This document shows, one piece after another, positions 2,557 to 36,937 of a stretch of DNA of 64,000 nucleotides. The stretch is from Escherichia coli (GTDB taxonomy: Bacteria; Pseudomonadota; Gammaproteobacteria; Enterobacterales; Enterobacteriaceae), in assembly GCF_024298765.1 (NCBI RefSeq), contig NZ_CP101210.1; one strand, 5' to 3'. The notes under the pieces were generated by a model. That model did not search any database. It saw only the letters and a list, made by a program, of their open reading frames with translations, and was not told the origin of the DNA. Position 1 is the stretch's first letter; every line of letters starts with the position of its first letter. Both the position numbers and the translations under genes were made by a program.

Positions 2557-3297
2557 TTAACTGGCGGTGACGTTGATTTCTGCAACCGCAGCAAACTCAC
2601 CATTACCAGATACGACCGGAATGTTGACCTTGCCTGCAGCAACACCTTTCACGGTGATGGTCATACCACTGACCGACACGGTGGCTTTTGTTTTATCCGC
2701 AGACACCGCACGGAAGCTCTTGTCGGTTGCGCCATCCGGCTGGAATGCCACGGTCAGCGTGGTGCTCTGCCCTTTCACTACGGAAGCACTGGCGGGTGTC
2801 ACCGTCATGCCGGTCGTCGCCGTCACCGTGCTGCGATCTTCTGCCATCGACGGACGGCCCACATTGGTGACCTTCACCGTGCGGGTAATCACTTCCTTCG
2901 CCGTCACCGCCTTACCGATACTGCTGACCCAGCCACGGAACACATCGACCGTGCCGTTCGGGAAGCGGATTTTATAGGCACGGGTATCACCTTCATTAAA
3001 CCACGCCAGCAGCGCCTGCTGCCCCTGCTCTCCGGGCATCCACGCCAGCGTGAAGCTGGTATCTCCGGCAGATTTCTGCCCCTGCCCGGTCGCAGTCCAG
3101 TCTGCATCTTCATCATCGAGATAGCTGTCGTCATAGGACTCAGCGGTCAGTTCGCCGGGCGTCAGGTCTTTAACTTTTGCCAGACGCGACCAGTCAACGT
3201 CTGAAAGCGGGTTCGCATAAGGGTCACCGCTCCCCTTATAAACCCACAGGGTGGTTCCGGCACCTTTCACCGGTATTGCTGGATTTGGTACAGGCAT
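2557..3297 (-). CDS. V: major tail protein V
   Basis: ORF 2557..3327; internal start MPVPNP... gives 246 aa like lambda gpV; C-terminal Ig-like domain. Confidence 0.9.
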
Positions 3298-3304
3298 ATC
3301 GTCC

Positions 3305-3700
3305 TCACATTTCATAGGTAATGACATACGTCAGATCGGCAGAACTCCACAAGCCCGCATCATCGTCGCGCCGGTAGTCATAGCCACTGGCCACCATACT
3401 GGTGATCAAATCTGACAGTGCCGGGATATCGCTCATCACCGGATAAATCCGGGACTCCATCCACGCATCCAGCTCTGAATCCGGCACCTGAGCAGGCAGG
3501 AAAACTTCAATATGCAGCTCCGCCTGCCAGGTATCGCTGTCCAGCTCTTCGCCCGTGTATTCAGCGCCGGTGAGATAAACGGCAATTGCCGGAAAATCTT
3601 CCTCATCAAAAACAGCAGGGCGACCATCAAAAAACGTCGCCCCGGTGTCATGCTTCTCCAGTGCATCCAGTACGGCTGCACGGAGTTCAGTATGTTTCAT
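3305..3700 (-). CDS. U: tail terminator protein U
   Basis: 131 aa [16 protein letters not shown]..., lambda gpU. Confidence 0.9.
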
Positions 3701-23886: not shown

Positions 23887-24180
23887 ATGAAAAAAATGTT
23901 GTTTTCTGCCGCTCTGGCAATGCTTATTACAGGATGTGCTCAACAGACGTTTACTGTTGGAAACAAACCGACAGCAGTAACACCAAAGGAAACCATCACC
24001 CATCATTTCTTCGTTTCGGGAATTGGACAGGAGAAAACTGTTGATGCAGCCAAAATTTGTGGCGGCGCAGAAAATGTTGTTAAAACAGAAACCCAGCAAA
24101 CATTCGTAAATGGATTTCTCGGTTTTATTACTTTAGGCATTTATACTCCGCTGGAAGCGCGTGTGTATTGCTCACAATAA
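23887..24180 (+). CDS. bor: Bor lipoprotein (serum resistance)
   Basis: ORF 23839..24180; start MKKMLFSAALAMLITGCAQQTFTV... with lipobox; lambda Bor. Confidence 0.9.
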   Translation: MKKMLFSAALAMLITGCAQQTFTVGNKPTAVTPKETITHHFFVSGIGQEKTVDAAKICGGAENVVKTETQQTFVNGFLGFITLGIYTPLEARVYCSQ

Positions 24181-25954: not shown

Positions 25955-27052
25955 ATGAAAAAATTAACAGTGGCAATTTCTGCTGTAGCTGCATCAGTAC
26001 TGATGGCGATGTCTGCTCAGGCAGCTGAAATTTATAATAAAGACAGTAACAAGCTGGATCTGTACGGGAAAGTTAATGCTAAGCACTACTTCTCCTCTAA
26101 TGATGCAGATGATGGTGATACTACTTATGCCCGTCTTGGCTTCAAAGGTGAAACCCAAATCAACGATCAACTGACTGGTTTCGGTCAGTGGGAATATGAA
26201 TTCAAAGGCAACCGCGCTGAATCTCAAGGTTCCTCCAAAGATAAAACCCGTCTTGCCTTCGCTGGCCTGAAATTCGGTGACTACGGCTCCATCGATTACG
26301 GCCGTAACTACGGTGTAGCATACGACATCGGTGCGTGGACTGACGTCCTGCCAGAATTCGGTGGTGACACTTGGACTCAAACCGACGTGTTCATGACTCA
26401 ACGTGCAACTGGTGTTGCAACCTATCGTAACAACGACTTCTTTGGTCTGGTTGATGGTCTGAATTTTGCTGCTCAGTACCAAGGCAAAAACGATCGTAGC
26501 GATTTCGATAACTACACTGAAGGTAACGGTGATGGCTTCGGTTTCTCTGCTACCTATGAATACGAAGGATTCGGTATCGGTGCAACTTATGCGAAATCTG
26601 ATCGTACCGACACTCAAGTTAATGCAGGGAAAGTTCTTCCTGAAGTATTTGCTTCCGGTAAAAATGCAGAAGTTTGGGCCGCAGGTCTGAAATATGACGC
26701 TAACAACATTTACCTGGCCACTACCTATTCTGAAACCCAGAATATGACTGTATTTGCTGATCACTTCGTTGCTAATAAAGCCCAAAACTTCGAAGCTGTT
26801 GCACAATATCAGTTCGATTTCGGTCTGCGTCCGTCCGTTGCTTACCTGCAATCTAAAGGTAAGGATCTTGGAGTATGGGGCGATCAGGACTTAGTCAAAT
26901 ATGTTGATGTAGGTGCAACCTATTACTTCAACAAAAATATGTCTACTTTCGTTGATTACAAAATCAACCTGCTTGACAAAAATGACTTCACTAAAGCACT
27001 CGGTGTAAGCACTGATGACATCGTTGCTGTAGGTCTGGTTTACCAGTTCTAA
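25955..27052 (+). CDS. outer-membrane porin, OmpC/NmpC/Lc family (lysogenic-conversion gene)
   Basis: ORF 25895..27052; start [23 protein letters not shown] signal peptide; [17 protein letters not shown]... and C-terminal VGLVYQF typical of general porins; sits between Q and S on the opposite strand as in DLP12/PA-2. Confidence 0.9.
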
Positions 27053-32300: not shown

Positions 32301-33315
<1,015 letters not shown>

Positions 33316-33442
33316 TAGGAAGTAAGTTTTATGTTGACGGCACAGTCAACTTGGCATAGATTAATTAAACCAAGCCCAGCCCCGTTCGCAGACAATTGTT
33401 AATATCTGCATAACGGCTCTGGGCTATTTTTTTGGGACTCTT

Positions 33443-34300
33443 ATGAAGAAAGCAGCAATTTTAATTGATGCGGGTTTTTTCATGCAGCGTGTTCATGCTA
33501 CGCATCGTAAACACTTCGCCGAGCATGAACTGACTGCGCAATGCATAATGAAAGTAATATGGTCAATGGTTCTTTCCCATCTTAATGGAAAACGTCAATC
33601 ACAAGAACGTAGGGAACCGCTTGAGCTTTATAGAATTTACTTCTATGACTGTCCACCACTCGACATTCAAACACGCCTTCCACTTCCTGAGCCTGGCAAT
33701 AAGACGCCTGGTCGCAAGAATTTCAAACTCGAAAAATCATATATTCTGAGAACGGAGCTGCATGAAGAGTTAAGAAAAACTCGAAAAACAGCCTTAAGAT
33801 TAGGGAATCTTGTTGATAATAAGCGATGGCAACTAACTACATTCTCCCTTGATGCTCTGATGAAAGGAACGAAAAAATGGGATGAACTGACAAATGATGA
33901 TTTTTACTATGACATCAAACAAAAACAAGTTGATATCAAGCTAGGGATGGATATCACGACTTTAGCTTATGAAAAACTTGTTGATGTAATTGTCCTTGTT
34001 GCTGGGGACTCAGACTTTGTGCCTGCCGCCAAACACGCCAGAATTAAAGGTATTGATTTTATTCTTGATCCACTAAGACAGAATGTTACCCCATCACTGT
34101 CAGAGCACATTGATGGAGTTCAGTCATACAGCTTGATATCAGGACTTGCCGATGCTTTACATGTTGAGCCAGACCCGGCACCTGACTGGTGGGAAGATCG
34201 AAAAAAAGGCAAGCCTAGGGGAAAAAACAATAGCGGTAAACGCAGGTATGGAAACACTCAAGCTGAGTCTGCAAAGAAACATCAAAGAAATAAACGATAA
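33443..34300 (+). CDS. NYN-domain (LabA-like, PIN-like) putative nuclease occupying the rexA-rexB position
   Basis: 285 aa; MKKAAILIDAGFF... and VIVLVAGDSDFVPA motifs typical of NYN domains; basic C-terminal tail; downstream of cI on the same strand; not similar to RexA or RexB. Confidence 0.6.
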   Translation: MKKAAILIDAGFFMQRVHATHRKHFAEHELTAQCIMKVIWSMVLSHLNGKRQSQERREPLELYRIYFYDCPPLDIQTRLPLPEPGNKTPGRKNFKLEKSYILRTELHEELRKTRKTALRLGNLVDNKRWQLTTFSLDALMKGTKKWDELTNDDFYYDIKQKQVDIKLGMDITTLAYEKLVDVIVLVAGDSDFVPAAKHARIKGIDFILDPLRQNVTPSLSEHIDGVQSYSLISGLADALHVEPDPAPDWWEDRKKGKPRGKNNSGKRRYGNTQAESAKKHQRNKR

Positions 34301-34781: not shown

Positions 34782-35679
<898 letters not shown>

Positions 35680-35848: not shown

Positions 35849-36217
35849 GTGTCAAACATCAAAAAATACATCATTGATTACGACTGGAAAGCATCAATAG
35901 AAATTGAAATCGACCATGACGTAATGACAGAGGAAAAACTTCACCAGATTAATAATTTCTGGTCAGACTCTGAATACCGACTCAATAAACACGGCTCTGT
36001 ATTAAATGCTGTATTAATCATGCTGGCGCAACATGCTCTGCTTATAGCAATTTCAAGCGACTTAAATGCATATGGTGTTGTGTGTGAGTTCGACTGGAAT
36101 GATGGAAATGGTCAGGAAGGATGGCCTCCAATGGATGGTAGCGAAGGAATAAGAATTACCGATATCGATACATCAGGAATATTTGATTCAGATGATATGG
36201 CTATCAAGGCCGCCTGA
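35849..36217 (+). CDS. ea10: Ea10-like early protein
   Basis: 122 aa, GTG start with GAGGA RBS; position between N and cIII as lambda ea10. Confidence 0.6.
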   Translation: MSNIKKYIIDYDWKASIEIEIDHDVMTEEKLHQINNFWSDSEYRLNKHGSVLNAVLIMLAQHALLIAISSDLNAYGVVCEFDWNDGNGQEGWPPMDGSEGIRITDIDTSGIFDSDDMAIKAA

Positions 36218-36289
36218 GTGCGGCTTTACCGCATACCAATAACGCTTCACTCGAGGCGTTTTTCGTTATGTATAAATAAGGAGCACACC

Positions 36290-36430
36290 ATGCAATATGC
36301 CATTGCAGGGTGGCCTGTTGCTGGCTGCCCTTCCGAATCTTTACTTGAACGAATCACCCGTAAATTACGTGACGGATGGAAACGCCTTATCGACATACTT
36401 AATCAGCCAGGAGTACCCAAAAATGGATAA
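36290..36430 (+). CDS. cIII: CIII (FtsH inhibitor), apparently 8 codons shorter than lambda CIII
   Basis: [46 protein letters not shown] then stop, inside ORF 36218..36430. Confidence 0.8.
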   Translation: MQYAIAGWPVAGCPSESLLERITRKLRDGWKRLIDILNQPGVPKNG

Positions 36431-36566
36431 AAAACTTATGGCTATCCAGACAAAATTCACTATTGCCACTTTTATTGGCGATGAAAAGATGTTTCGTGAG
36501 GCCGTCGACGCTTATAAAAAATGGATATTAATACTGAAACTGAGATCAAGCAAAAGCATTCACTAA
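36423..36566 (+). CDS. kil: Kil
   Basis: [47 protein letters not shown], lambda Kil with two substitutions near the N-terminus. Confidence 0.8.
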
Positions 36567-36937
36567 CCCCCTTTCCTGTTTTCCTAATCAGCCCGGCATT
36601 TCGCGGGCGATATTTTCACAGCTATTTCAGGAGTTCGGCCATGAACGCTTATTACATTCAGGATCGTCTTGAGGCTCAGAGCTGGGCGCGTCACTACCAG
36701 CAGATAGCCCGTGAAGAGAAAGAGGCAGAACTGGCAGACGACATGGAAAAAGGCCTGCCCCAGCACCTGTTTGAATCGCTATGCATCGATCATTTGCAAC
36801 GCCACGGGGCCAGCAAAAAAGCCATTACCCGTGCGTTTGATGACGATGTTGAGTTTCAGGAGCGCATGGCAGAACACATCCGGTACATGGTTGAAACCAT
36901 TGCTCACCATCAGGTTGATATTGATTCAGAGGTATAA
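36521..36937 (+). CDS. gam: Gam (RecBCD inhibitor)
   Basis: 138 aa [55 protein letters not shown]..., lambda Gam. Confidence 0.95.

Follow-up and report, generated by a model that had tools for sequence, protein, structure and literature searches.

The best described cIII-kil pair is that of phage lambda (NC_001416; cIII 33299-33463, kil 33187-33330), in which a 54-aa CIII and the cell-division inhibitor Kil are encoded in two frames. In CIII, residues 14-37 are essential and sufficient for activity, as stated where Kobiler et al. (2007, PMC1838920) cite Kornitzer 1991, and alanine substitutions at S17, R24, L26, R27 and R32 abolish activity (PMC1838920). The amphipathic helix formed by residues 14-37 would act by competitive inhibition of the protease FtsH, which would stabilise CII and favour lysogeny; CIII is itself an FtsH substrate (PMC1838920). 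The core of Kil is a predicted helix-turn-helix (residues 4-38, with the turn at G19-D20; PMC11762379), a peptide proposed to block FtsZ-ring assembly in a ZipA-dependent manner. Kil deprived of residues 1-5 still blocks division, with a Z-ring dissolution about 10-fold less efficient than that of the full-length protein (Naha et al. 2025, PMC11762379), and the Kil protein of phage HK629 is likewise active and ZipA-dependent (Naha, Cameron and Margolin 2025, PMC11762379).

The locus analysed here lies in a 64,000-nucleotide segment of an Escherichia coli chromosome (NZ_CP101210.1; hereafter the window). It resembles lambda in the genes of its PL operon, their order and strand (ea10-cIII-kil-gam-bet-exo), the kil Shine-Dalgarno sequence and the position of the kil start; it differs in the length of CIII (46 aa in the window, 54 aa in lambda), in the extent of the overlap (8 nt as compared to 32 nt), in two Kil residues (Q3K and T4K) and at the site of the lambda cIII stop, which reads AAA in the window. 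We are confident that this junction is a frequent natural allele (46-aa CIII, 8-nt ATGGATAA overlap, Kil starting MDKK) of an intact lambda-like prophage, that both products are most likely fully functional, and that the short form is probably the ancestral one.

Prophage context and anatomy of the junction

The prophage is found between late genes and int-ybhC-ybhJ, and the presence of the E. coli genes ybhC and ybhJ after int places it at the lambda attachment site. Its PL (leftward early) operon runs on the + strand of the window, from N through the DUF2528/ea10 gene, cIII, kil, gam, bet and exo and then to xis and int. On this single strand, cIII is located downstream of N and ea10 and upstream of the recombination genes, the PL-operon location expected for the CIII family. 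Genes around cIII-kil are intact and near-identical to those of Escherichia phage ev099, and 4 of 44,000 bases differ between the window and E. coli strain 104 (NZ_CP029164). The late region of the prophage carries two morons, iss (a serum-resistance lipoprotein gene, homologous to bor; 23887-24180, +) and a porin gene (25955-27052, +), and identical prophages, among the matches listed, come mostly from avian or APEC strains.

Two further genes occupy positions held by other genes in lambda. At the rexA/rexB position, between the cI-like repressor gene (32602-33315) and N, lies a gene for a 285-aa NYN-domain protein (33443-34300, +), possibly an exclusion or defence gene carried by the prophage. 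Its ORF is intact in the window and its protein is identical to that of ev099; the RefSeq record of strain 104 splits this gene into a "partial" pseudogene and a 117-aa CDS, and the disruption suggested by this split annotation was rejected given the intact ORF in the window. At the lambda sieB position, the opposite strand contains an ORF of 164-167 aa to which no function is assigned (35098-35601, -): it shares 8 nt with the 3' end of N, it encodes a coiled-coil-like middle and two CxxC motifs near the C-terminus (CAQC...CHRC), and its sequence is unrelated to the lambda region that it replaces, lambda homology breaking between 35105 and 35608.

At the junction itself, the ORF list and its translation give for cIII (36290..36430, +) 46 codons followed by a TAA stop (36428-36430), that is, a short form of the FtsH-inhibitory lysogeny factor CIII that ends ...QPGVPKNG and is identical in the alignment to residues 1-46 of lambda CIII. 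The kil gene (36423..36566, +; 47 codons) translates to a Q3K/T4K (MDKK) variant of the cell-division inhibitor that ends ...SKSIH and is identical to lambda Kil over residues 5-47. The two frames overlap over the 8 nt of ATGGATAA (36423..36430, +), with the kil start at 36423-36425 and the cIII TAA stop 2 nt past the kil ATG. RefSeq annotates the same cIII interval with a 46-aa product (WP_001198858.1, "protease FtsH-inhibitory lysogeny factor CIII") and Kil as WP_000358700.1, both as normal CDS and free of any pseudogene flag.

A Shine-Dalgarno sequence for kil (AGGAG; 36409..36413, +) can be read within the Pro-Gly-Val codons of cIII, 9 nt upstream of the kil ATG, and the CCAGGAGT element is kept in HK629, P22, SE1 and Salmonella prophages. 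QPGVP is the most conserved C-terminal motif of CIII; it is encoded by CAGCCAGGAGTNCC (36404-36418, +), within which the downstream gene has its Shine-Dalgarno sequence. P22 and SE1, whose downstream "kil" encodes an unrelated protein, also keep this element, suggesting that a ribosome-binding-site constraint may explain part of the conservation of QPGVP in the protein.

The differences from lambda were located by pairwise alignment of positions 36200-36600 (401 bp) with NC_001416, which gives 10 substitutions and 0 indels; eight of the substitutions fall within 36415-36500. Three of them (36415, 36418 and 36421, +; A, C and A in the window for C, A and G in lambda) are synonymous in cIII and lie in the spacer between the kil Shine-Dalgarno sequence and ATG. 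The focal one (36429, +; A in the window, C in lambda) turns the cIII codon TCA (Ser47) into TAA and, in the other frame, the kil codon CAA (Gln3) into AAA (Lys), hence Q3K. The next (36433, +; A for C) turns kil ACA (Thr4) into AAA (Lys), T4K; being located after the new cIII stop, it leaves CIII unchanged. Further downstream, an A for T at 36452 (+) makes the lambda cIII stop TAA (36452..36454) read AAA and is synonymous in kil (ACT to ACA, Thr10), and the remaining two (36464 and 36500, +; T for C and G for A) are both synonymous in kil.

The alignment bears out what the first-pass annotation had stated of lambda: the cIII frame does stop before that of lambda, by exactly 8 codons where about 8 had been proposed (46 aa as compared to a 54-aa protein ending ...KNGSNTYGYPD), and kil does begin MDKKLM where lambda has MDQTLM. 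The position of the lambda stop being different, the window junction is not the lambda wild type. The same annotation attributed both differences to the same few base changes, which is accurate for the cIII stop and Q3K, the product of a single nucleotide (36429), but not for T4K, which results from another change, located downstream of the new stop. The annotation also proposed that the overlap may constrain both proteins; this applies less to the window allele than to lambda because the frames share only 8 nt (36423-36430) in the window and 32 nt in lambda.

Conservation of the parts required for CIII and Kil activity

The short CIII matches the Pfam family Lambda_CIII (PF02061) at 106.1 bits (cut-off 25.7), residues 2-43 covering the model from 1 to 42 of 42, and the 54-aa form of lambda scores 105.4 bits; an NCBIfam scan of four peptides gave no match. 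The amphipathic-helix region (24 residues, 14-37) is intact in the window, including S17, R24, L26, R27 and R32, and the missing residues 47-54 fall outside both the Pfam domain and this helix. The dispensability of residues 47-54 is taken from the literature on lambda constructs, the results of Kornitzer 1991 being taken second-hand from the passages of PMC1838920 that cite them, and the natural 46-aa allele adds population-level support for the published dispensability of the C-terminal tail. Read together with this literature, the sequence suggests that the window CIII most likely works as that of lambda, inhibiting FtsH and stabilising CII.

Kil is similarly well preserved: it matches Lambda_Kil (PF06301) at 69.9 bits (cut-off 27.6) over model positions 1-31 of 31, the lambda protein itself scoring 72.3 bits. 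Its core, a predicted helix-turn-helix, is intact, and T4K, at the first core residue, is the only core difference from lambda. Both changed residues, 3 and 4, belong to the N-terminal five that are dispensable for division inhibition (PMC11762379). Changes at the N-terminus could nevertheless tune potency, given that Kil lacking the first five residues is about 10-fold weaker on Z rings (PMC11762379). The window Kil would thus most likely block FtsZ-ring assembly in a ZipA-dependent manner, like its lambda counterpart.

The functional effect of the substitutions, which the first-pass annotation had called unknown, is therefore narrowed: neither the Pfam CIII domain nor the 14-37 region, as delimited in PMC1838920, includes the absent CIII tail, and Kil residues 1-5 can be deleted with division inhibition kept (PMC11762379). 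Given the retained Pfam domains, the essential residues and published mutagenesis of the lambda proteins, both products are expected to be functional as in lambda. Since both keep all the parts known to be necessary for function, the short cIII and the MDKK Kil are ordinary, already catalogued natural variation and no lesion.

Frequency, ancestry and origin of the short allele

How common the allele is was assessed by counting exact DNA k-mers and by exact-sequence look-up; a homologue search with the 46-aa CIII showed mostly minor or partial clusters. A tblastn search of lambda CIII against phages was rejected as a test of short versus long forms because the alignment runs through the stop codon and the two alleles are not separable; it served only for locating HK629, P22 and SE1. 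Junctions of the lambda type were counted in 1,519 of the 5,426 complete E. coli genomes covered. With each record counted at its best place and about 300 records falling in no class, the window 81-mer (MDKK) is found exactly in 62 of the 5,426 genomes (75 when 13 more at one mismatch are included), a TAA/MDKT 78-mer in 194 records and the lambda TCA 78-mer in 943. In IMG/VR, among the first 120 contigs that matched a lambda-type junction pattern with the variable bases left free, 34 of 120 carry TAA, 86 carry TCA and 7 encode MDKK. Exact matches to the 46-aa CIII and to the MDKK Kil each occur on at least 1,000 contigs in a collection of 15 billion proteins, and both are NCBI-named. Between about a fifth and a quarter of the lambda-type junctions found in nature specify the 46-aa CIII, frequencies that are not population estimates given that genome collections are biased towards O157/Stx strains. 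A sequencing error or a pseudogene was rejected on this allele distribution, since an error would not recur in an independently isolated phage and in 62 complete genomes.

Public collections also hold occasional cIII-kil fusion or frameshift products (72, 63 and 80 aa), for example CIII residues 1-23 in frame with the full Kil; others are read-through forms of the kind expected if the window allele lost its TAA. Rare mutants or assembly errors probably account for all of these.

The first-pass annotation described substitutions that shorten CIII, a direction that is probably backwards: TAA with Kil Lys3 is the state of Salmonella-type junctions (40 of 40), of HK629 and of 34 of the 120 lambda-type IMG/VR junctions, where it spans 16 haplotypes, suggesting that the short form is old and probably ancestral. 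The divergent Salmonella-type junctions, TAA and MDK in all 40, came from a second IMG/VR scan in which the focal base was left free, and CIII homologues at 74-89% identity end ...NG. Among lambda-type loci, the TAA class is the more diverse, its 34 loci falling into 16 haplotypes (mean of 5.8 pairwise differences per 182 nt); the 84 loci of the TCA class fall into 13 haplotypes, two of them dominant (mean of 2.3 per 182 nt). By parsimony against the divergent lineages, in an argument of polarity that uses one outgroup clade with nearly uniform Kil sequences, we infer that the short CIII with Kil Lys3 is probably the older, ancestral state and the 54-aa CIII of lambda a stop-loss extension. 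An A-to-C change (TAA to TCA) would have removed the stop, the cIII frame then extending to the next chance stop, and the same change would have turned Kil Lys3 into Gln. In lambda, the tail SNTYGYPD is kil codons 3-10 read in another frame and its stop is made by kil codons 10-11 (ACT AAA). The loci are extensively mosaic, every combination of CIII tail type, CIII N-terminal type and Kil length being represented, a sign of rampant recombination. The cIII-kil junction thus exists in forms other than the lambda reference, which is probably not ancestral.

Recombination could also account for the way in which the differences arose. The eight changes in 86 bp may be a short recombination or gene-conversion patch from another lambdoid phage and not point mutations in place, a possibility that we hold tentatively and that bears on origin only, being compatible with a functional natural allele. 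Over 3.7 kb, where the window is 97.5% identical to lambda, the seven differences in 36415-36464 (50 bp) form the densest 100-bp bin, the average being 2.4 per 100 bp; the flanks are 565 bp with only 2 differences, and different loci combine the sites in many ways, as recombination predicts. The clustering is modest however, since several other bins hold 5-6 differences, and the variable sites are exactly those at which coding leaves latitude: the third positions in the last cIII codons before the overlap, and sites synonymous in kil that the early cIII stop frees from dual coding. Local relaxation of constraint therefore explains the cluster in the absence of a patch.

A less likely proposition is that the two junction types differ functionally. 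Given that only 2 nt separate the kil ATG from the cIII stop, ribosomes that finish cIII at ATGGATAA could reinitiate on kil, and/or loss of the tail could alter the degradation of CIII by FtsH, shifting the frequency of lysogenisation or the timing of division arrest. Kil synthesis would then be tied to the translation of cIII, which is regulated by RNase III and RNA structure, in place of the lambda arrangement in which ribosomes would run through the kil start over 32 nt. Such coupling is consistent with the overlap geometry, with the strict conservation of ATGGATAA in 40 of 40 divergent junctions and with the AAA AAA codons right after the start, which make the initiation region richer in A; that both forms persist at appreciable frequency in many haplotypes, and that CIII is degraded by FtsH (PMC1838920), would also fit a functional difference. 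However, kil possesses its own Shine-Dalgarno sequence (AGGAG, 9-nt spacing) and remains active in a lambda strain in which the cIII start codon was destroyed (PMC3961180), showing that coupling is not required, and selection on the Met-Asp-Lys codons of Kil and the Asn-Gly codons of CIII accounts equally well for the fact that ATGGATAA is conserved. RNA structure argues against coupling as well: folding at the kil start for the three alleles gave no regulatory hairpin remodelled by the clustered substitutions, the same weak local hairpin being predicted in all three and being no more stable than shuffled sequences (z -0.5 to -1.2). In this predicted hairpin (36405-36444, +), the kil Shine-Dalgarno region (GCCAG.GAGU) pairs with kil codons 5-7 (ACUU.AUGGC). 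The loop contains all five of the junction substitutions and the stems, which are also dual-coding, contain none.

A more specific version, in our opinion somewhat more doubtful still, combines ancestry and coupling: the 54-aa CIII of lambda would be a derived stop-loss form whose tail is merely out-of-frame kil codons 3-10, and the ancestral ATGGATAA would be a termination-reinitiation coupler that makes Kil synthesis follow the translation of cIII. If so, the two junction types should give measurably different Kil levels or lysogeny frequencies, and they provide a natural allele pair for asking whether overlap geometry affects kil translation.

Finally, it is very improbable that the prophage is decaying and the early stop a harmful nonsense mutation, leaving CIII hypomorphic or null with the Kil changes as collateral: relative to the lambda reference the stop is formally premature and removes 15% of the protein, but this reading is largely refuted by the distribution of the allele, which is shared with the free phage ev099 and found in 62-75 complete genomes and at least 1,000 contigs, and further weakened by a 46-aa CIII that differs by one residue (I36V) in the viable HK629, a stop that is fixed in a divergent clade, a Pfam domain and essential 14-37 region that are fully kept, and neighbouring prophage genes that are intact and near-identical to those of ev099.

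Named relatives and their annotation

One close named relative is Escherichia phage ev099 (NC_049953 / LR597635, Radostvirus ev099), which is 100% identical to the window over 36200-36600 and shows 3 mismatches in 6,401 bp over the region from immunity to ea22. Judged from these sequences, the prophage of the window would effectively be the same phage, in the prophage state. The ev099 record differs by annotation and not by sequence: an 89-aa "Kil" is called at locus positions 3098-3367 and cIII is left uncalled. This "Kil protein" of the GenBank/RefSeq records corresponds to a spurious 89-aa entry in the ORF list of the window, in which the kil frame is extended upstream (36297..36566, +). 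The GenBank/RefSeq records of HK629 likewise contain an over-long "Kil protein" (80 aa; locus positions 408-647) that runs across an uncalled cIII. The over-long calls look like a gene-caller artefact that arises with the short 46-aa cIII; the PGAP annotation of bacterial genomes has both cIII and kil correct. Annotators should bear in mind that, when cIII is short, gene callers tend to omit it and to over-extend kil to an ORF of 80-89 aa.

More distant relatives share the junction to varying degrees. P22 itself has a c3 with a ...HDYCAC tail, paired with an unrelated kil. The cIII-kil pairs of Salmonella P22-like prophages are close to the window in their architecture: CIII ends ...NG, the 8-nt ATGGATAA overlap is the same and a lambda-type Kil starts MDK, whereas identity in CIII reaches only 74-80% and Kil, at 37 aa, is of a divergent form. 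HK629 (JQ182735), an isolated and viable lambdoid phage, shares with the window a 46-aa CIII ending ...PKNG, the ATGGATAA overlap and Kil Lys3; it differs by I36V in CIII, by a Kil of 37 aa that starts MDKT (no T4K) and has another C-terminus, and by another downstream module in place of gam.
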